A stretch of 64,000 nucleotides of DNA from a bacterium. GTDB lineage: Bacteria; Patescibacteriota; Minisyncoccia; Phycocordibacterales; Phycocordibacteraceae. Below the pieces are notes generated by a model, which did no database searches, had not been told where the DNA came from, and worked only from the letters and a program-made list of their open reading frames with translations. The stretch spans positions 416,001 through 480,000 of the forward strand of contig JBBCGK010000001.1 of NCBI GenBank assembly GCA_037200965.1, written 5' to 3'. Positions 7,829-60,715 of this stretch are shown piece by piece. The position numbers were made by a program, and so were the translations under genes. Position 1 is the stretch's first letter; the number at the start of each line of letters is the position of its first letter.

Positions 7829-8512
7829 TCAAGGACTCACGATGACGACAAATTCTCCCCGGATCTCGCCCGGAAACGCCGCGAAATGCGCCCGGCACTG
7901 GGTAGCGGTGCCGACGACGAGCGACTCGTAGAGTTTCGTGAGCTCGCGGCAAACGGCGACCTTCCGATTGGCGTCGAGGACCTCGACAAGAGAATCGAGC
8001 GCTTTCTCGATACGGTGCGGGGATTCATAAAAAACGACAGCGCGCCGGCTTGTTCCGATTTCCTTAAAGAGCGTCTGCCGCCCTTTTTTATGCGGAAGGA
8101 ATCCGAGGAACGTGAACTCCGCAGCCGGGAGTCCCGCGATCGAGAGTGCGGCAGTAAGGGCCGAGGCGCCAGGGATGGCCTCGATCTTTACCGATTCCCC
8201 GAGCCGCTCGCGCGTTTCTCTTACCAGCTCGTTTCCGGGGTCCGAGATGCCCGGCGTCCCCGCATCGGTCACGAGCGCGACGCGCTTTCCTTCCCCAAGA
8301 AGCGCGAAGATCTTCGAGGCAGCCTTGGGGCCGCTTCGCGCATGGAAAATAAGAAGCGGCTTCGAGATTTCATAGCGCGCCAAGAGCTTCGCCGTCACGC
8401 GCGTGTCCTCGCACGCTATCGCGTCGGCCTGCCTGAGCGTCTCGAGCGCCCGCAGCGTGATGTCACCCAGGTTGCCTATGGGCGTTGCCACAACGGAAAG
8501 AGTCCCGAGCAT
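7829..8512 (-). CDS. rsmI: 16S rRNA (cytidine1402-2'-O)-methyltransferase
   Basis: MLGTLSVVATPIGNLGDITLRALETL...AIACEDTRVTAKLL...DAGTPGISDPG matches the RsmI / tetrapyrrole-methylase-like fold. Confidence 0.8.
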   Translation of the reverse strand: MLGTLSVVATPIGNLGDITLRALETLRQADAIACEDTRVTAKLLARYEISKPLLIFHARSGPKAASKIFALLGEGKRVALVTDAGTPGISDPGNELVRETRERLGESVKIEAIPGASALTAALSIAGLPAAEFTFLGFLPHKKGRQTLFKEIGTSRRAVVFYESPHRIEKALDSLVEVLDANRKVAVCRELTKLYESLVVGTATQCRAHFAAFPGEIRGEFVVIVSP

Positions 8513-8619
8513 CGTGTCCGTACCTTACCACCATGCGCTTCGTCCGAACAGCGCAGGACGCTGTTCCCGGGATTATTCGTGGATAAATTGCCGGGTCCAC
8601 GAGTCGTGATCCGGGGGTA

Positions 8620-9477
8620 TTAAGAACAAGTTGGCACAAGCGTGAGTGATTTCGTTAAGTAAATACGGGGCGAATTGAAGATTTCCGGCGAGGAAAATCT
8701 GAAGCAGAATTCCCTCACGTATTCCTCCAAGTTCTCGCTCCAGTGATGATGATACATCCTGCGCACGAAGGTGCGGTATACCCCGAACATTCCCTCGATC
8801 TCAGAGGTGTGCTCGAACTCGAATTTGGAGTGAATATCTCGCTGGTGCGACACCGGCCAGCGTTGGCTGATGTTCTTGTATATCGACCCGCCATCGGTCC
8901 AGAGCTCGCTTCCCGGCGCCACATGCTCGAACAGGAATGAGACGGCATCAGTCTTGGTTGGGTACCTGCCGTGGAATACCTCGAAGGCGAGCTTTCTCGT
9001 ACCTTTCTGCTTGGCCATGACGAGCGCGGCGTTTTTGAAGTACGCTTCGTCCATTTGGACGATACGTTCGAGCACATGGGTTTCCTGGGGCAAATGGAGC
9101 CTGAAGGTGGCATACCAACGCCTGACCGTGCGTTCCGGAAGGCCAGAGAGCGTGACGGCTTGGCGTACCGGCTCTTGTATGGTCCAGCACCAGAGCAGCA
9201 CCCACCACTGCTCGAGGGGGAGCTTCAGATTCGAGAGCCAGGTGTGCGAGGTGAGGGAGAAGCGGATGCGGCACGTGCGGCACCGATACCGCTCCTGTTG
9301 CTTTTCGATCCTTCGTGACCGGCACGAAGGACAGAACACGTTCTTGCCGAAGAGCGTACGGCGCAAGAACTTCCGAATCTGCGCTTCGCTCGGTATCTGT
9401 TTGAGAGTGTACATAGCTTCCATGGTATGGGAGCTGTGCCAACTGAGTCTGAATGCCCTGATCCGGGGACTTGACAA
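8620..9477 (-). CDS. IS1595-family (ISXO2-like) DDE transposase
   Basis: N-terminal zinc ribbon CPSCRS...YRCRTCR, then IVQMDEAYF...TDGGSIY...E, typical of DDE_Tnp_IS1595. Real start probably MEAMYTLKQ near 9423. Confidence 0.75.
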   Translation of the reverse strand: MSSPRIRAFRLSWHSSHTMEAMYTLKQIPSEAQIRKFLRRTLFGKNVFCPSCRSRRIEKQQERYRCRTCRIRFSLTSHTWLSNLKLPLEQWWVLLWCWTIQEPVRQAVTLSGLPERTVRRWYATFRLHLPQETHVLERIVQMDEAYFKNAALVMAKQKGTRKLAFEVFHGRYPTKTDAVSFLFEHVAPGSELWTDGGSIYKNISQRWPVSHQRDIHSKFEFEHTSEIEGMFGVYRTFVRRMYHHHWSENLEEYVREFCFRFSSPEIFNSPRIYLTKSLTLVPTCS

Positions 9478-9500
9478 TACAATATACTAAGGTGTATAAT
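9471..9500 (+). promoter_or_regulatory. near-consensus sigma70-type promoter (TTGACA-18bp-TATAAT)
   Basis: TTGACA at 9471-9476 and TATAAT at 9495-9500. A 7-bp inverted repeat ATTGATG...CATCAAT lies just downstream. Confidence 0.5.
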
Positions 9501-9547
9501 TGATGCCGTACCCTGTACATCAATCATCACGCTAAGAGGAGAGTTAC

Positions 9548-9658
9548 ATGGATATGACCACCTTACCCTTCGTTGTCGCTTTGGCGACGTTCGGGCTGTA
9601 TTTCGCGGGCCTGTTTTTCGAGGCACGCGCGACAGCGATCCCGTACTTCCGCCCGTAG
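9548..9658 (+). CDS. 36-aa hydrophobic peptide ORF with a strong ribosome-binding site
   Basis: AAGAGGAG 6 nt upstream of the ATG; MDMTTLPFVVALATFGLYFAGLFFEARATAIPYFRP*. Below the ORF-track length cutoff. Confidence 0.3.
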   Translation: MDMTTLPFVVALATFGLYFAGLFFEARATAIPYFRP

Positions 9659-9680
9659 ACCGAAAAACGGGCGTCTCATT

Positions 9681-9720
9681 GGCGCAGGCTCCGTAAGGAA
9701 CCTGCGCCAACCTGCTTTTC
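9681..9720 (+). terminator. hairpin plus T-run downstream of the mini-ORF
   Basis: GGCGCAGG-ctccgtaaggaa-CCTGCGCC followed by aacctgcttttc. Confidence 0.4.
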
Positions 9721-9745
9721 AAGATGAATCAAAATCGGTAACGGT

Positions 9746-11029
9746 CTAGGTCTTAGGTGCGGCGAGCATGTCCGCAATTTTATAAATATCTCCTGCGCCC
9801 ATGGTCATAAGGGAGTCGCCGGAGCCATACGTTTCGAGCACCTTCTCGATAGCGTCAAACGAAGGAAGCGCTGCGGCGTCGGTGCCTTCCGCACGGATAC
9901 GTTCGGCGAGTATGTCACTTGAAATGGTGCCGTCGTCCGTCTCACGCGCCGCATAGATGGGAGCTATAAGGACCTTGTCCGCGTCCTTGAAGGCGGTTGC
10001 GAAATCGTCGAGGAGGTCGCGGGTGCGGCTGTAAAGATGCGGGTGGAAGGCGACAACGACCCTGCCGTTCGTCTTTTCCCGAAGCGCCTTCAAGGTCTCG
10101 CGCACTTCGGTCGGGTGATGCGCGTAGTCATCGTATACGTCGGCCCCGCTCTTGGTTTTTCCTTTGTATTCGAAACGCCGCCAGGTGCCGTGGAAATGAG
10201 AGAGCGAAGTGGCGATGGAACTTTCAGCGATAGACGGAAGAACGGCGCGGGCGGCCCCGGCGGCAGCGCGGGCATTCATTTGATTGAAGCCTCCCGGAAG
10301 CCGCAGCTCATAGGCAGGCTCGAGCGTATAGTCGATAACGGGCGCCACGGCGTCGGCGAGCACCGCCGCGATATTCGCGTCGTGGGGGTTCGTGACGATA
10401 CAGCCGTCCTCGGGCACGTTCCGTATCGCCGTACGAAACGTTTCCTGAAGAGCTGCAAGCGACGGGAAATGATCGGTATGGTCCCATTCGAGGTTGGTGA
10501 CCACGAGCACCGAGGGGGAGAGCTCGAGCAGGTGATCCTTATATTCGCACGCCTCGACGACGAAAAGATCCGAATTACCGGAAAGATAGTTGGAGCCGAA
10601 ATCCTTGACGATAGAGCCGACGATGGCGGTCGGAGAAGCCCCGGCGTCGGCGAGAATCTTCGCAAGCATGCCGGTCGTGGTCGTCTTCCCGTGCGTTCCG
10701 GCGACCGCGATCGTCTTCTTTCCCCGCGACACTTCCCCGAGCATGGCGAAGTACGAGAGTTCGGGTATGCCAAGCTCCCGGGCGCGCATTCGTTCCGGAT
10801 TTTCCGGAGGCACCGCGTCGCTATAGATGAGCCTGTTCGTGAGAGCCTCTACGTTCTCCGCCTTTTGACCTATCACGACCCTGATCCCCTTCTTCTCCAA
10901 TAGCTCCGTCACCGGACCCGCCTCCCTGTCCGATCCGGTTATTTCATTTCCCTGCTCCTTGAGCATTTGCGCGAGCGCGCTCATCCCGATGCCGCCGATG
11001 CCGGTGAAATGGAGTTTTTGAGGGTTCAT
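9746..11029 (-). CDS. murC: UDP-N-acetylmuramate--L-alanine ligase
   Basis: MNPQKLHFTGIGGIGMSALAQMLKEQGNEITGSD... and the Mur-ligase P-loop GTHGKTTTTGM. Confidence 0.85.
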   Translation of the reverse strand: MNPQKLHFTGIGGIGMSALAQMLKEQGNEITGSDREAGPVTELLEKKGIRVVIGQKAENVEALTNRLIYSDAVPPENPERMRARELGIPELSYFAMLGEVSRGKKTIAVAGTHGKTTTTGMLAKILADAGASPTAIVGSIVKDFGSNYLSGNSDLFVVEACEYKDHLLELSPSVLVVTNLEWDHTDHFPSLAALQETFRTAIRNVPEDGCIVTNPHDANIAAVLADAVAPVIDYTLEPAYELRLPGGFNQMNARAAAGAARAVLPSIAESSIATSLSHFHGTWRRFEYKGKTKSGADVYDDYAHHPTEVRETLKALREKTNGRVVVAFHPHLYSRTRDLLDDFATAFKDADKVLIAPIYAARETDDGTISSDILAERIRAEGTDAAALPSFDAIEKVLETYGSGDSLMTMGAGDIYKIADMLAAPKT

Positions 11030-12099
11030 GCGCCTGTGCCAAGCACGATATCAGAAATATCCCGGCGAAGCTCGTTGATGGCATCCGGGCTCGAGCGCTT
11101 GGGATACGTCCTGTTGGAGAGAACGGCAAACGCTGTTTCCCGTTCCGGATCGACGACGCAGAGCGTTCCCGTGAACCCTGTTTTCCCGAATGTGCTCGGA
11201 CGCACGTGATTTCCCATGAACCTCGGCTCGTTGAGTTCCCATCCAAGGCCCATCGATACGCCAGGCAGGCTGAGCTGGTTGGTATGCATCTGCGCGACCG
11301 TCGCGGGCTCGAAGTATTTGATGCCGCTCAGCGAGCCTTCGTTCAGAAGCATCTCGAGGAAGATGAGGATGTCCGGTACGTTCGTAAAGAGGCCGGCGCA
11401 ACCCATGGGATGCTCTTTCTCCAGAACGAAGCTGGTCTCGTCGTGTACGAATCCCTGCACGAGCCCCCGCCATTCGTCTATCTCCGTCGGCGGAATGCTC
11501 TTCTGGTCGCGAGGAAAAAAGGTTGAGTTCGTCATGCCAAGCGGCTTGAAGAAGTATCCGTGTCCGACTTTATCGACCGTCGAACCTGTTATGTTTTCTA
11601 TGACCAGGCTAAGGAGGAGCGCCGGAAGATTCGAATATTTCGCCTGTTCGCCCGGCCGGGCCTTGAGATTCACGTGCGGAAGATTCTTTCCTATTTCTTG
11701 CGCAGTCGCCTTCGTGACGTCGAATCCGGGCGTCGGAAAATCTGGGATAATCGCGTATGTGAGCAGGTGCCGGATGAGCGTCTCGTGTGTGTAGTTATTT
11801 TTGTAAGTCGGCAGATGAGTGACAAGCTTGTCGTCGAGGGAAAGCTTCCCTTCTTCGATCAGTTTGAGCGCGATGGAGCTCGTCGGGATCGATTTGGTGA
11901 TGGAGGCGACATCATACGATGTATCCGCCATGACCCGGGGACTTTCCGGTTCGTAGGTGAAGCGGCCTTCCGCGAAAATCTCGCGCTTCCCGTCGCGCCC
12001 TACGATGCCGACGACGGCACCCGGGAAGACTCTTTCTTCGATAGCGCGTATAAGCCTGTTTCGGAGTGCTGATTCCATAGACGCTATCAACTCTAGCAT
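11026..12099 (-). CDS. serine hydrolase, beta-lactamase / penicillin-binding-protein-like family
   Basis: S-x-x-K active-site motif within SYDVASITKSIPTSSIALKLIEEGKLSLDDKL; 357 aa. Confidence 0.65.
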   Translation of the reverse strand: MLELIASMESALRNRLIRAIEERVFPGAVVGIVGRDGKREIFAEGRFTYEPESPRVMADTSYDVASITKSIPTSSIALKLIEEGKLSLDDKLVTHLPTYKNNYTHETLIRHLLTYAIIPDFPTPGFDVTKATAQEIGKNLPHVNLKARPGEQAKYSNLPALLLSLVIENITGSTVDKVGHGYFFKPLGMTNSTFFPRDQKSIPPTEIDEWRGLVQGFVHDETSFVLEKEHPMGCAGLFTNVPDILIFLEMLLNEGSLSGIKYFEPATVAQMHTNQLSLPGVSMGLGWELNEPRFMGNHVRPSTFGKTGFTGTLCVVDPERETAFAVLSNRTYPKRSSPDAINELRRDISDIVLGTGA

Positions 12100-51408: not shown

Positions 51409-52149
51409 ATGAGGGAAGGATACGTCGCTCCGAAGCAATCAGGTGAGACATCGCCTGAAATGCGGATTACCGCTTGTATCGGAGCAAAGGCGGATTTCGA
51501 CCCGTACACACGAGCAGATATACACGATTTGGACGCCATCCCCGTCGACTATTACGGGAACACAAAAAAATGGAACCGCTTCAATCAACTTAATGGAGGC
51601 GAGGGTACCTATGTAATTTCGGCCATCGATGCAAGCAATAAGGAATCGAAAGATTATCTCGACTGTACCGGTCTTGCCGCCGTAGGCACGGATAAGAGAT
51701 CTGGTGAAACTGTTTCGCTTTTGACTCATCAAGACCCCAAACAGATCGTACAAGAACACCGCGATCGGTACATTGTCGATATGACATCGCGTTTAATGGA
51801 ATTGCATGACAACTGCTCCCCTCATTCAATCGATGTGATGCTTTTTGGTGGAGCGGCAAGGAATTCCGAAGATATGAAAGGGTACCGAGAATCAATTATG
51901 CTTCTAAGGAAACTGTGCGAAAAGACCCTAGGCATCGATCCGCATGTCGTAGTAGGACCGAACAATCCTGATTTTAATCAATGGGATTGGGAGGTTGGAG
52001 CGGTACTCGATACCAAGCATCGGCGACTTTATATTACTCGAGCGCCACAAGATACAGTTCGTGATGCCGAAACTAGTTTTGGATTCAAAGCTTCTGAACT
52101 CGAAAACGTCGAGAGGCGGTGGCGAAACCCTTCCAACGGAAAAACTTAA
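51409..52149 (+). CDS. hypothetical protein, low-GC island immediately downstream of recA
   Basis: 246 aa with no motif I recognise. Visibly AT-richer codon usage than the flanking genes. Confidence 0.5.
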   Translation: MREGYVAPKQSGETSPEMRITACIGAKADFDPYTRADIHDLDAIPVDYYGNTKKWNRFNQLNGGEGTYVISAIDASNKESKDYLDCTGLAAVGTDKRSGETVSLLTHQDPKQIVQEHRDRYIVDMTSRLMELHDNCSPHSIDVMLFGGAARNSEDMKGYRESIMLLRKLCEKTLGIDPHVVVGPNNPDFNQWDWEVGAVLDTKHRRLYITRAPQDTVRDAETSFGFKASELENVERRWRNPSNGKT

Positions 52150-56548: not shown

Positions 56549-56585
56549 AGTTGCACAACCTCCTTTTTACGAACGATCCTGCAGG
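56549..56585 (+). repeat. 37-bp direct repeat, copy 1 (left boundary of the cassette)
   Basis: AGTTGCACAACCTCCTTTTTACGAACGATCCTGCAGG, identical to 58765..58801. Confidence 0.8.
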
Positions 56586-56594
56586 TTAAAAGCC

Positions 56595-56903
56595 GTGACT
56601 GATTTTCATCGAAAGCACGGCTACGACGTGGGGACCGGGAACATGGCGGTCATGTCGCTCAGAATTGGACTACTCATAGAAGAACTGGGTGAACTCCACG
56701 CCGTGGTTTCAAAGGGTGTTGGCGACATTTCAGAGGAACACGCAGACCTCTTGTATCTACTTCTTGGAAACTGCGTCACGCTTGGTATTGATATAGAAAC
56801 TGCTTTCTTTGCAAAACATGCCATTAACATGCGGAGGGAAGCCAAGGTAGTGAGGGGGAACCGCCGTGTATCGGATTGGTCCCATGAAAAATCTCAGGAA
56901 TGA
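56595..56903 (+). CDS. small MazG-like nucleoside-triphosphate pyrophosphohydrolase (MazZ-like)
   Basis: GTG start; 102 aa with MazG motifs LIEELGELHAVV and EEHADLLYLLLGNC; 4-bp overlap with the next gene; low GC. Confidence 0.65.
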   Translation: MTDFHRKHGYDVGTGNMAVMSLRIGLLIEELGELHAVVSKGVGDISEEHADLLYLLLGNCVTLGIDIETAFFAKHAINMRREAKVVRGNRRVSDWSHEKSQE

Positions 56904-57931
56904 AAGCTACAGTCATCATCGGTGCGCAGTATGGCAGCGAAGGAAAAGGTAAGATTGCAGCTTATCTTTCAGATGAGTTCGCTCGTGCAGTTCGAACTGG
57001 CGGGCCAAACTCGGGGCATACCGTCGAGCGCAATGGCACGTTCTATCAAGTTCGAGCGGTCCCTAGTGCCTTCGTGAACCAACAATGTCGCCTCGCGATT
57101 GGTGCCGGGGCCATAATAAACACTGCCGTACTATTAGGAGAATTAACGGCATGTGGTATTGTCGAGGGGCGTTTGATAGTTGACCCTCAGGCTGTCATAA
57201 TTGATGAAGAATATCAAAATTCGGAACTAGATTTAATCAGTTCGATTTCGTCCACCGGACAAGGCGTTGGTGCAGCAATCGCAGCTAAGGTCTTACGTCG
57301 GAAAGTAACTCTCGCAAGAGACGTGCCCGAGTTGCGGCCACTGCTTGCCGATGTTGCTGGCACGATCAATTCCGAACTCCAACAAGGCCTAGCTGTAATG
57401 ATTGAGGGGTCGCAAGGATTTTTCTTGAGTTTGCATCATGGTTACTATCCGTTTGTAACAGGCAGGGAAACGACCGCAAGTTCATTTTGCGCCGAAGTAG
57501 GAATCGGTCCCAAAGATGTGGGTCAAGTGATTGGAGTTCTCCGCACCCACCCGATTAGAGTTGGCGGCCCTTCGGGACCTCTTCAAGACGAAATCGATTG
57601 GCAGACCGTCACCGCCGAGTCGGGCTACCCAACACCGCTGTTAGAGATAACTACCGTTACCAAACGAATTCGACGCGTCGGGAGGTTCTCAATGGCCGAA
57701 GCTAAACGATCTTTGATGATCAATTCGGCGACCCAAATTGCTTTAAACTTCGTCGACTACTTGGACCATGCAAACTTTGGACTTAGAAGCTACACCGCAC
57801 TGACTGCTTCAACAAAAAAATTCATCGACGCACTAGAGACACAAACGGGAGTTCCCGTTTCGCTGGTGGGCACGGGGCCCCGTAACAGCGATATGATAGA
57901 CTTACGACGCGAAAAGAACCTCCCCCATTAG
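56900..57931 (+). CDS. short adenylosuccinate-synthetase-family enzyme (PurA-like; candidate PurZ-like 2-aminoadenylosuccinate synthetase)
   Basis: 343 aa. VIIGAQYGSEGKGK (the PurA P-loop GDEGKGK but with Asp->Ser); GGPNSGHTV (GGxNAGHT); IEGSQGFFLSLHHGYYPFVTGRET (GAQG...YPYVTS); ITTVTKRIRRVGRF (TTGRRRR-GW). Confidence 0.6.
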   Translation: MKATVIIGAQYGSEGKGKIAAYLSDEFARAVRTGGPNSGHTVERNGTFYQVRAVPSAFVNQQCRLAIGAGAIINTAVLLGELTACGIVEGRLIVDPQAVIIDEEYQNSELDLISSISSTGQGVGAAIAAKVLRRKVTLARDVPELRPLLADVAGTINSELQQGLAVMIEGSQGFFLSLHHGYYPFVTGRETTASSFCAEVGIGPKDVGQVIGVLRTHPIRVGGPSGPLQDEIDWQTVTAESGYPTPLLEITTVTKRIRRVGRFSMAEAKRSLMINSATQIALNFVDYLDHANFGLRSYTALTASTKKFIDALETQTGVPVSLVGTGPRNSDMIDLRREKNLPH

Positions 57932-57939
57932 ATACCAGC

Positions 57940-58692
57940 ATGAAAAACCAATACTTTGGCGACTTGAGCGACTATAAGAAGTACGGTTTGCTGCGCACAC
58001 TTTCGATTGAGGGTGAGTGCTCGCTCACTGTGTGTTGGATGCTGACGCGAGATGATCAAAGTACCGACGGGCGGCATACAACTTATTTGGCGGACGTAAG
58101 AGAATGGCGCAACCATGAGCCGTTGGTATTTGATCTACTCGCGGACGCAGTCTTCAAAAATTCCCGTAATCTCGAAATAGTTGAAAAGTCCGGACTAATA
58201 CCGAACTCAAACTACTTTCGTGAGGAAATCGGCGATGCTCCCTCCCAACGGGAAGCTTTTTTTGCCCGATTGGCAGATGAAGCCCGCAATTCTGATATTG
58301 TGTTCTTGGACCCCGACAACGGCCTTGAAGTGAAGTCAGTCCCCTATGGCTCCAAGGGAGCACATAAGTACATTTATCGGTCTGAAATCGAAAAGTTATC
58401 TCGGAATGGACTTTCAATCTTGCTGTATCAACATTTTGGTCGGAAAGAACGGTCTGAGTTTATCCGAGCTATTGCATTGAAACTCATCGATTGGCTGAAT
58501 GTGGAGGAAGTATTTTCACTTCGGACGACGCATACCGTATTTTTTCTTGTGCCGAAAGCTGCCCACAGGTCGCGAATAGATCGATCCCTCCAGGCAGTAA
58601 ATAGACAATGGGGAGATAAGATCTTTATCGAGATACACTCTAAGGAGTCTGTATCAACGGTTACAACGAAAAATCAGTTAGACCTACTCTAA
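57940..58692 (+). CDS. hypothetical protein, third gene of the cassette
   Basis: 250 aa: MKNQYFGDLSDYKKYGLLRTL...IVFLDPDNGLEV...SILLYQHFGR...; no motif I recognise; low GC. Confidence 0.55.
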   Translation: MKNQYFGDLSDYKKYGLLRTLSIEGECSLTVCWMLTRDDQSTDGRHTTYLADVREWRNHEPLVFDLLADAVFKNSRNLEIVEKSGLIPNSNYFREEIGDAPSQREAFFARLADEARNSDIVFLDPDNGLEVKSVPYGSKGAHKYIYRSEIEKLSRNGLSILLYQHFGRKERSEFIRAIALKLIDWLNVEEVFSLRTTHTVFFLVPKAAHRSRIDRSLQAVNRQWGDKIFIEIHSKESVSTVTTKNQLDLL

Positions 58693-58755
58693 GTAAGTGA
58701 GCAACATGGATATTGGAAAGGAGCCTGACTTCGCCTCGGATGCCTACTTTGATAA

Positions 58756-59418
58756 TCCGCAACAAGTTGCACAACCTCCTTTTTACGAACGATCCTGCAG
58801 GACGATATCCACAAATCACTGCTGCGCAGCGCGGGCCTCGCGCATCTCTCGGCGGATGAGATTGGGGACTTGAGGGACTTGGCAGCGCATGAGCTACGGA
58901 ATGAGACCGCGGACCGCGGTGGTCTCATGGCGGGATTGCGACTGCGCCTGCAACAATGCGACACACGGCTATCACGCCTTACAGACGCGCTCCTCGACCA
59001 CCTCATCGAAAAGCAGGAATACGAAGCCAAGAAGGCCGCGCTCCTGGGCGAGCGGCGCGAACTGCTAGACAAACTGGAAAGCCCGGAGGCTTCGCGTCAA
59101 CCCGCCGACGGCGTGCTGCAAGCATTGGAACTGCCAGATGTCGTGGAAACACGCTACGAAATGGCTTTGCCGGACCAACGGCGCCGCATTGCGTCTGCAA
59201 TCGCTTGGAACCTAACTGGTAGCGGAAAAGAGGCCGTACCTGAGCTGAAATCTCCGTACCGGGAGATCGTACAGTGGCGTCTTTCCAATCCGGTGCGCCG
59301 TAACGGGGAGCGATCGGAACCTGACATAAAGCTGCTATACGAAGCGCTCAAAGAAGTCTGCCGGCGAGAAGACAAGCCGCCGCAACGTCCCCAACGTCCT
59401 GATGTCTCCGGCATATAA
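58756..59418 (+). pseudogene. N-terminally truncated recombinase-like ORF (C-terminal coiled-coil region resembling large serine recombinases); no catalytic domain
   Basis: The frame is open from 58756 (through the repeat), but the first usable start is the TTG at 58870. ...RLSRLTDALLDHLIEKQEYEAKKAALLGERRELLDKLESPE...DQRRRIASAIAWNLTG... matches the leucine-rich coiled coil and tail of large serine recombinases. The similarity is from memory, not a search. Confidence 0.35.
58765..58801 (+). repeat. 37-bp direct repeat, copy 2 (right boundary of the cassette)
   Basis: Identical to 56549..56585. Lies inside the open frame that continues into 58870..59418. Confidence 0.8.
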
Positions 59419-60715
59419 GGCGACATACTTTTTCGAGAATTGTCGCGCCTTATGCCGCGTGAATGTCAGGCAGATGCTGTTCTGCATGGATGCGAGCATC
59501 AGCTACTTCGCCCGCACCAACTTCCGCAACCGAAACCAGCTCTTCGGTGTGAGGCAAGCCGACCGTCTTTCGCACCTGTACGTCATCGGCAAGACTGGCA
59601 CGGGCAAGTCCACCCTCCTTGAAACCCTCGCCCGGCAAGACCTTCGGGCCGGGCGCGGCTTCGCCCTCATAGACCCGCACGGCGATCTCGTGGAACGGAT
59701 CGCGAGGGACGCGCCGGAAGCCGTCTATCTGAACGCCCCCGATCCCTCCCAGCCCTTCGGCTATAATCCGCTCCGGAGGGTCAGGGACGACAAGATACCG
59801 CTTGCCGTCTCGGGCTTCCTCGAAACCCTCAAGAAGCTCTGGCCCGACGCGTGGGGCGTGCGCATGGAGCACGTCCTTAGGAATACGCTGTATGCGCTAT
59901 TCGAGCAGGAGGATGCGCGGCTTCCCGATATCCTCCGCCTCTATGCCGACGAGACATACCGGAAGGCGCTCGCCAAGGGGATTAGGAACGATACCGTCCG
60001 CCGCTTCTGGCTCCATGAGTTCGAGCACTTCCACTTTCGCCAGAGGGCGGACGCCGTGGCTCCGATACAAAACAAGATCGGGGCGCTCCTTGCCGACCCC
60101 ACGCTCTATCGCATCCTCGTCGAGCCAAAGGAGGATATCCGCTTCCGTGCCCTCATGGACGGCGGCGGGGTTCTTCTGGTCAATCTCTCGAAGGGCAAAC
60201 TTGGCGAGGACAGCTCGCACATCCTCGGCGCGCTCATCGTCTCGACCCTGGGCCTTGCTGCCTTTAGTCGGGCCGACAGTCCCCCAACCTCCCGCCGCCC
60301 TTTCTTCGTCTATATCGACGAATTCCAGTCCTTCACGACCCTTATGCTCGCCGACATGATGTCGGAGCTGCGGAAGTACGGCGTGGGCCTTACCTTGGCG
60401 CACCAATATATGCACCAGCTTGAACCCGAGATACGGCATGCGGTTCTGGGGAACGCTGGGACGCTCATATCATTCCGTGTTGGCCCCGAGGATGCGTCAA
60501 TCCTGGCGAAGGAGTTTCAGCCGACGTTTGACACACACGATCTCCTGAACCTGCCTAACCACCATATCTATCTGAAGCTGATGATTGATGGGGTGCCGGG
60601 CGGGGCGTTTAGTGCAAATACAGTCGATCATTCGACGCGGGGAGAGACAAAGCTCGCACCGCTACGAAGGACTTCAGACTTGAATGCGGGCGAAAGCGCG
60701 TCTGACTATGTGTGA
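59402..60715 (+). CDS. TraD/VirD4/TrwB-like coupling-protein-family ATPase (paralog of 5554..7545)
   Basis: LYVIGKTGTGKSTLLETLARQDLRAGRGFALIDPHGD; Walker B FFVYIDEFQSF; collinear with the other copy at roughly 45% identity by eye. Confidence 0.6.
   Translation: MSPAYKATYFFENCRALCRVNVRQMLFCMDASISYFARTNFRNRNQLFGVRQADRLSHLYVIGKTGTGKSTLLETLARQDLRAGRGFALIDPHGDLVERIARDAPEAVYLNAPDPSQPFGYNPLRRVRDDKIPLAVSGFLETLKKLWPDAWGVRMEHVLRNTLYALFEQEDARLPDILRLYADETYRKALAKGIRNDTVRRFWLHEFEHFHFRQRADAVAPIQNKIGALLADPTLYRILVEPKEDIRFRALMDGGGVLLVNLSKGKLGEDSSHILGALIVSTLGLAAFSRADSPPTSRRPFFVYIDEFQSFTTLMLADMMSELRKYGVGLTLAHQYMHQLEPEIRHAVLGNAGTLISFRVGPEDASILAKEFQPTFDTHDLLNLPNHHIYLKLMIDGVPGGAFSANTVDHSTRGETKLAPLRRTSDLNAGESASDYV

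Follow-up and report, generated by a model that had tools for sequence, protein, structure and literature searches.

The question raised by this locus is what a 250-residue protein without any recognizable domain does directly downstream of a gene for a PurZ-type synthetase. The locus lies in a 64,000-nucleotide stretch of a contig of a member of the Patescibacteriota (JBBCGK010000001.1), which as a whole is called the window here, and the gene in question is referred to as the target gene:

57940..58692, + strand: target gene, member of an unannotated family with a predicted, divergent RlmJ-like fold of the N6-methyladenosine (m6A)-methyltransferase type

Its open reading frame (ORF) starts with ATG and specifies 250 amino acids (aa). 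The ORF, the N-terminus (MKNQYFGDLSDYKKYGLLRTL), and the central stretch (IVFLDPDNGLEVKSVPYGSKGAHKYIYRSEIEKL) agree exactly with a first-pass annotation of the sequence; this is a real, intact gene and no chance ORF. The answer tentatively favoured here is that the protein may be a modifying enzyme directed at the exocyclic amine of purines, or at the base, which accompanies PurZ-type modules; its mechanism is one that we infer. What is solid is the family, its predicted fold, the conserved pocket residues, the origin of the window copy as a fragment, and the facultative linkage to PurZ-type genes.

The target gene belongs to a family of thousands of clusters across both prokaryotic domains that is without annotation in Pfam, NCBIfam, PADLOC, and PHROGs. 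In a 90 %-clustered protein database, 1,208 homologues were found at E ≤ 1e-3, mostly of 234-250 aa and none with Pfam domains. A profile search of 1.84 billion representatives gave 4,391 clusters (50 % identity) at E ≤ 1e-3, and 1,180 at E ≤ 1e-30. Scanning of one genome per species placed the family in at least 567 species, and its range covers many bacterial phyla as well as Thermoplasmata, Nanoarchaeota, and Halobacteria. This patchy spread over bacteria and archaea at about 40 % identity suggests horizontal transfer. Members occur on 3 of 72,556 plasmids, while 2.9 million viral contigs hold merely seven copies, all of them distant, and a search of 50,697 phage genomes, including 219 with PurA/PurZ-like genes, detected none. 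Scans of the target protein against Pfam (E ≤ 1), NCBIfam, PADLOC, and PHROG matched nothing meaningful, and the PADLOC 2.0 defence-system models matched neither the target nor its homologue in locus L016. Searches of PDB sequences with phmmer and with profiles gave chance matches alone (aldo-keto reductases and one ankyrin protein). A literature search that included DUF7002, adenylosuccinate synthetase in defence, and RlmJ/DUF519 in DNA modification retrieved no paper describing the family.

In an alignment of 56 sequences, the members of which are 37-53 % identical to the window protein, 28 residues are invariant. M1 and K2 are among these, which fixes the start codon of the target. Still invariant when members of only 25-28 % identity are added are M1, Y5, D8, D11, K14, L18, L21, W33, D43, G44, R76, R104, D124-P-D-N-G128, and E149, and the N-terminal tail of the family (residues 1-15) is invariant or nearly so. 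A PD-(D/E)xK nuclease, considered on account of the "PD...ExK" pattern in FLDPDNGLEVK, was dropped as a candidate since K132 is not conserved and the fold is unsuited.

Structure prediction gives the target protein a divergent Rossmann methyltransferase fold of the RlmJ type, in which helices 48-84, placed between strands 29-35 and 90-96, form a helical subdomain that follows strand 1. RlmJ is set apart by a subdomain of this kind and by a conserved N-terminal tail that covers the active site, and both features recur in the target. The closest fold is that of an rRNA m6A methyltransferase, and the closest known proteins are RlmJ (23S rRNA m6A2030 methyltransferase, PF04378; PDB 6qe5/4blv) and LPL1258 of Legionella (PDB 2oo3). 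There was no similarity to HD, Nudix, NDT, or dUTPase folds, and a Foldseek search against viral structures gave merely generic methyltransferase-fold matches. The absence of P-loop, HD, methyltransferase, and nuclease motifs reported in the first-pass annotation holds for sequence models, but the predicted fold is methyltransferase-like.

As no sequence method ties the family to RlmJ, the following register with the Escherichia coli enzyme is our own reading, set by eye and not via structural superposition:

Motif X: target G7-D8-x-x-D11-x-x-K14-Y15, RlmJ G11-N12-x-x-D15-x-x-K18-H19
Motif I region: target T36, RlmJ T41
Motif II: target D99, RlmJ E118 (binds the ribose of S-adenosylmethionine, SAM)
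Motif IV: target F-x-D124-P (Asp124-Pro125), RlmJ I-D164-P (Asp164-Pro165)
Motif VI: target Y163-Q-H, RlmJ W195-Y-P (stacks on the target base)

Read in this way, the family retains residues (D11, K14, Asp124-Pro125, and Y163) that in exocyclic-amine methyltransferases make up the pocket for the target base. In RlmJ, K18 and D164 are essential for catalysis and K18 is positioned by D15, while the SAM site uses H42 and the motif III residues D143, G144, and F145, the latter three of which bind the adenine of SAM. The (D/N)PPY DNA N6-adenine methyltransferases (T4 Dam, M.TaqI, EcoDam) follow the same catalytic logic, with the motif IV Asp/Asn positioned by a motif X Lys/Thr. The target family differs from this scheme in several respects. 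It has an invariant D124-P-D-N-G128 instead of the (D/N)PP(Y/F/W) of motif IV, which reads D164-P-P-Y in RlmJ, it lacks a motif I of the DTHAGAG type and the motif III unit, and the target is about 30 residues shorter than RlmJ, to which it is 9 % identical with no Pfam or profile-profile signal. Moreover, RlmJ is a proteobacterial housekeeping gene, whereas the target family is patchy, mobile, and present in bacteria and archaea. The family is best placed within the RlmJ-like/amino-methyltransferase structural class, from which its catalytic motif and its cofactor site deviate. Like restriction-modification methylases, some of its members adjoin nucleases, of the GIY-YIG type on Ensifer plasmid pCTYH.Ch1_3 and of the HNH type in locus L003.

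The gene upstream of the target gene is the following:

56900..57931, + strand: PurZ-type adenylosuccinate synthetase-like gene, 343 aa (Pfam PF00709, E 7e-59)

Its stop codon and the target start are separated by 8 nt (57932..57939); the two genes are on the same strand, and the close coupling described in the first-pass annotation is confirmed, with a spacer of 8 instead of 9 bp. The best NCBIfam model for its product is that of the short archaeal-type adenylosuccinate synthetases, with 361.8 bits at a cut-off of 368, and the product also stays below the cut-off of the PurZ model NF038379 (219.3 vs 300 bits). The residues reported to determine PurZ specificity are F12, S14, T262, F295, and Y298. 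An alignment with the PurZ of the phiVC8-like Vibrio phage H1 and with E. coli PurA revealed the PurZ residues in the window protein. In its GAQYGSEGKG motif, Ser replaces the catalytic Asp13 of PurA and an aromatic residue occupies the F12 position. TTVTK and NFVDY (NFxDY) agree with phage PurZ and differ from E. coli PurA, NFVDY standing in place of the guanine-recognition motif TKLD of the latter. According to a 2026 study, Asp13 is present in 99 % of prokaryotic PurA proteins, and merely four archaeal sequences with Ser or Gly lie near PurZ.

Whether this gene pair is an isolated case was examined by inspecting 83 non-redundant loci of the target family. A PurZ-type gene lies within 6 kb of the family member in 12 of these, and is by far the commonest neighbour: families unrelated to PurZ modules reach at most 5 of the 83 loci each, and the immediate neighbours are otherwise extremely heterogeneous. 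All linked synthetases carry GQ[YF]GSEGKG, with GEYGSEGKG in L044. In a neighbour-joining tree, the PurZ-linked members form one large clade and occupy at least six other positions (seven or more in all). Three types of module pair a PurZ-like gene with a target-family gene, characterized by a DarT-like ADP-ribosyltransferase (ART) with a macro-M78 protein, by a protein like dUTPase or dCTP deaminase (DCD), and by MazG and a cytochrome P450, respectively. Nine of the 12 linked loci represent one operon type, consisting of an M78 peptidase with a DarG-like macro region, a P-loop kinase::PurZ-like fusion protein of about 533 aa, DUF7002, and the target-family protein, with a median gap of 35 nt between the last two genes. 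In L026 the order is PurZ-like, DCD/dUTPase-fold protein (8997-9986), and target, and in one locus a genuine adenylosuccinate lyase gene directly follows the family member. The reciprocal count was made in 80 metagenome loci anchored on a PurZ-type gene, in which a P-loop kinase was seen 46 times, a DCD-like protein 36 times, DUF7002 18-20 times, and the target family 8 times. The linkage is far above chance and has arisen repeatedly, yet it is facultative, at roughly 10-14 % in both directions. The operonic placement after a PurA-like gene does recur elsewhere (12 of 83 and 8 of 80 loci, at seven or more tree positions), but the target is not an obligatory third component, as about 86 % of the family has no PurZ-type, MazG, or kinase neighbour.

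The way in which the pair came to the window is apparent from the surrounding features:

56595..56903, + strand: MazG/PRA-PH-like pyrophosphohydrolase domain, 102 aa, GTG start (Pfam PRA-PH, E 1e-6)
56586..58764, + strand: inserted fragment of low G+C content (GC), 2,179 bp, 99.95 % identical to part of an element like an integrative and conjugative element (ICE)
58707..58764, + strand: start of a cytochrome P450 gene, about 19 codons, truncated (from tblastn and the junction sequences)
56549..56585, + strand: left copy of a perfect 37-bp direct repeat, AGTTGCACAACCTCCTTTTTACGAACGATCCTGCAGG
58765..58801, + strand: right copy of this perfect 37-bp direct repeat

The block of three genes has a GC of 0.45-0.52 and its flanks one of 0.58-0.62. 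An identical target protein is encoded on two contigs of GCA_037975565.1, namely that of the window (960 kb) and that of L005 (4.0 Mb). A blastn comparison aligned L005 8647..10830 with window positions 56586..58770 over 2,185 bp at 99.95 % identity, and the two contigs have nothing else in common. The L005 operon (8071-11975) comprises four genes, for a 297-aa P-loop kinase::MazG protein, a PurZ-like protein, the target, and a 402-aa cytochrome P450 of the cyclodipeptide-synthase-associated type. Its neighbours, an integrase, a TrwB-like coupling ATPase, a relaxase, and AlpA, identify the element as ICE-like; a SET-domain gene is also located near the operon. The copy in the window begins at 56586, inside the fusion gene at the kinase/MazG linker. 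The MazG-domain ORF, annotated by NCBI as a pyrophosphohydrolase and overlapping the PurZ-like start with its stop codon in ATGA, is identical to residues 196-297 of the L005 fusion protein and is a remnant of the P-loop kinase::MazG fusion gene. At the other end, tblastn with the L005 P450 matched residues 1-21 alone, and the copy stops 58 nt into this gene. Only the PurZ-like and target genes are complete in the fragment. The cassette of the first-pass annotation is no native three-gene unit but a piece of a four-gene operon, cut inside the first and the last gene.

The 37-bp repeat occurs twice in the window and nowhere else in it (no copy would be expected by chance), and it is lacking from the L005 source element. 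Two independent assemblies, L007 and L008 (a second metagenome-assembled genome and a Logan assembly), contain the left junction as well, and the insertion is therefore real. An assembly chimera was rejected as the origin of the insert, given that three assemblies have the junction and no k-mer of the repeat occurs in the source contig. We know of no transposon or integrase mechanism that would account for a 37-bp duplication around a 2,179-bp fragment. The site of insertion, too, may be the remains of a mobile element. Just downstream, window positions 59402-60715 encode a TraD/HerA-like ATPase of 437 aa (PADLOC mad8, E 1e-16) that is 25 % identical to the TrwB-like ATPase of L005, and directly before it lies a 182-aa ORF (58870-59418) with a weak integrase-like match.

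The modules in which PurZ-signature synthetases occur are of interest in their own right. DUF7002 has the fold of DarT, a DNA ADP-ribosyltransferase, with the motifs Hxx / FFW / xxE. The operon of M78-macro, kinase-PurZ, and DUF7002 genes is widespread (L015, L016, L018, L025, L027, L029, L044, L048, L056, and many of L108-L172) and looks like an uncharacterised DarTG-type toxin/defence system with a purine-nucleotide enzyme. Operons of Lmac_3114 / DUF7002 DarT-like ARTs with an adenylosuccinate synthetase have been reported (BMC Genomics 2025, PMC12522546). These operons represent the module in which 9 of the 83 target-family members directly follow the ART gene; the RlmJ-like gene was not described in that study, and the window itself is without a DUF7002 or M78 gene. 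The commonest partner encoded directly downstream of PurZ-signature synthetases (36 of the 80 loci) is a protein of about 340 aa with a dCTP-deaminase/dUTPase fold, seen in L094, L095, L100, L103, L112, L128, and about 30 more metagenome loci as well as in L026 (8997-9986). Judged by eye in one example, its C-terminal extension has a membrane-associated or coiled look. A deoxynucleoside kinase (dNK)-like kinase accompanies the pair in 14 loci. In the literature, cellular PurZ-signature synthetases together with kinases, dNTP pyrophosphatases, and DarT-like toxins are touched on merely in passing. It is little known that such enzymes are common in cellular and mobile-element DNA, often beside DarT-like toxins; the recurrent pairing of the target family with them makes it testable whether cells make 2-aminoadenine nucleotides, and for what.

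The obvious comparison is with the Z pathway of phages, in which PurZ or PurZ0 works with MazZ, DutZ, DmtZ, and DatZ. The upstream gene shares the PurZ signature and the coupling to a MazG-like gene with this pathway, and the pairing of DCD-like with PurZ-type proteins parallels that of DutZ with PurZ0. Unlike the phage pathway, however, the window module is cellular or ICE-borne, lacks DpoZ and DatZ, and has a synthetase that scores below the curated PurZ cut-off; the partners in such modules also differ, being a P-loop kinase, a DarT-like ART, an M78-macro protein, or a P450. The target gene had been noted to occupy the position of DatZ, the HD-type dATP triphosphohydrolase of phage Z-clusters. 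The likeness is one of position beside PurZ-type and MazG-like genes alone: the predicted fold is RlmJ-like and a different one, model scans reveal no HD motif or domain, and the family is absent from the phage genomes searched. A DatZ analogue by homology was rejected on these grounds.

In the tentatively favoured reading, the target protein would bind a flipped or free purine (adenine, guanine, or 2-aminoadenine) by its exocyclic amine and then modify it, most likely by group transfer from an atypically bound SAM-like cofactor. Purine binding through the exocyclic amine is suggested by the conserved Asp-Lys...Asp-Pro residues and the stacking aromatic, and the fold points to exocyclic-amine base chemistry. 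A base-directed modifying enzyme is favoured because every partner deals with nucleotides of the guanine or adenine type or with DNA bases. The protein would serve, facultatively, as an accessory to PurZ-type nucleotide-conversion modules that are carried on mobile elements and in defence-type islands. In these modules, a dNTP pyrophosphatase is united with a P-loop kinase and a PurZ-like synthetase, and a DarT-like ADP-ribosyltransferase is often present as well. The target reached the window within a 2.18-kb piece of an ICE-borne operon (kinase::MazG, PurZ-like, target, P450). As DPDN and the cofactor site are unlike those of any characterised methyltransferase, the reaction may be new. A number of observations weigh against this proposal. 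After strand 1, the target has W-M-L-T-x-D-D-x-x-x-D-G instead of a Gly-rich motif I, there is no strand-helix unit (motif III) between motifs II and IV, and the most distant family members no longer have D99, the acid of motif II; such a remodelled cofactor site makes methyl transfer by the target uncertain. The RlmJ family PF04378 did not match the target in the Pfam scan (E ≤ 1), and hhalign comparisons of the family profile with E. coli RlmJ and with a 14-sequence RlmJ alignment gave a probability below 1 %, with an RlmJ profile that is too shallow since its homologues are all at least 83 % identical. Of about 14 complete DarT-type modules that have room downstream, just 4 include the target, about 86 % of the family has no PurZ-type neighbour, and fusion partners of the family are heterogeneous and barely detectable.

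A more far-reaching version, which we consider doubtful, holds that cells, and not phages alone, run PurZ-type 2-aminopurine chemistry in conflict systems, with the target as a partner at the level of nucleic acids, a base-flipping enzyme of a new kind with a DPDN pocket made for a purine with a 2- and/or 6-amino group. If so, there would be a conflict system in bacteria and archaea that combines a PurZ-type enzyme, a kinase, a dNTP pyrophosphatase, and a DarT-like DNA ADP-ribosyltransferase. The DPDN pocket would recognise or modify 2-aminoadenine or guanine in DNA or RNA, and would either mark self or attack Z-containing or otherwise modified invader DNA.

Somewhat unlikely, in our judgement, is the explanation that the target is an independent mobile gene, for an orphan anti-restriction DNA adenine methyltransferase or an Erm/Cfr-like resistance rRNA/tRNA methyltransferase, which shares variable islands with PurZ modules. 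Most family members do stand alone, among neighbours such as HipA, AbiEii, SMODS, SIR2, HNH, GIY-YIG, integrases, and transposases, and the patchy spread at about 40 % identity over bacteria and archaea, the closest fold being that of an rRNA m6A methyltransferase, and the transport of the target inside an ICE-derived fragment all agree with such a gene. Against it stand the frequency of PurZ-type neighbours relative to unrelated families (12 vs at most 5 of 83 loci) and the recurrence of the pairing in three module types and at seven or more places in the tree, with the two genes mostly in the same orientation and separated by a few nt. The canonical SAM motifs of a working methyltransferase are also missing. 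A mobile orphan methyltransferase would be an ordinary result, and the linkage data make it less likely. It is unlikely, too, that the target acts on free nucleotides in a 2-aminoadenine-type pathway, either as a functional analogue of DatZ or DmtZ that removes adenine nucleotides or as an enzyme or sensor for the PurZ product. In this second form, it would bind N6-succino-2-amino-(d)AMP or (d)ZMP in the adenine-N6 pocket without methyl transfer. In the Z pathways of phages, PurZ is always accompanied by enzymes that remove dATP or dAMP, and the target adjoins both a PurZ-type gene and a dNTP pyrophosphohydrolase. The unusual invariant charged cluster (D8, D11, D43, D124, D126, E149, K14, R76, R104) with the remodelled cofactor site, and the bona fide adenylosuccinate lyase gene directly after one family member, point in the same direction. 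A dedicated pathway step is, however, hard to square with the majority of members that have no PurZ-type neighbour, with the absence of the family from 50,697 phage genomes and its near-absence from 2.9 million viral contigs, and with the lack of similarity to HD, Nudix, NDT, and dUTPase folds. Finally, it is improbable that the target is a pseudo-methyltransferase, a regulatory or sensor domain that controls effectors nearby without catalysis of its own, although occasional fusions to HEPN-like, TPR, or winged-helix extensions would fit this role. The 28 invariant residues, with polar and charged ones at RlmJ catalytic positions, suggest catalysis over binding alone, the fusion domains were assigned below curated thresholds or without significance, and most members are single-domain proteins with no fixed partner.

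Several family members (P0168, P0216, P0127, P0139, and P0144) have C-terminal extensions of 200-380 aa. That of P0127 has a weak, sub-threshold match to HEPN_Swt1 (Pfam, E 7.6e-4), and P0168 and P0216 share an extension in which a KYRDW(A/C)VHP motif (R-x4-H, HEPN-like) was recognized by eye. P0133 carries TPR repeats. The extension of P0118, P0098, and P0181 is named Atl1-like by JGI, which could not be confirmed for P0118. The Pfam match to the MGMT DNA-binding domain was non-significant, and a PDB search with the P0118-type extension gave spurious TAL-repeat matches only. On plasmid pCTYH.Ch1_3 of Ensifer adhaerens (L090 5014-7319), a distant family member lies between two GIY-YIG-annotated genes with overlapping stop and start codons, a context that hints at a DNA-directed role of the family; genes for an SOS-response-associated peptidase and a DNA methyltransferase are located nearby. 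In the window itself, a second low-GC island (51409-52149; GC 0.46-0.50) with a 246-aa ORF without Pfam match is situated between recA and a sigma-factor gene.
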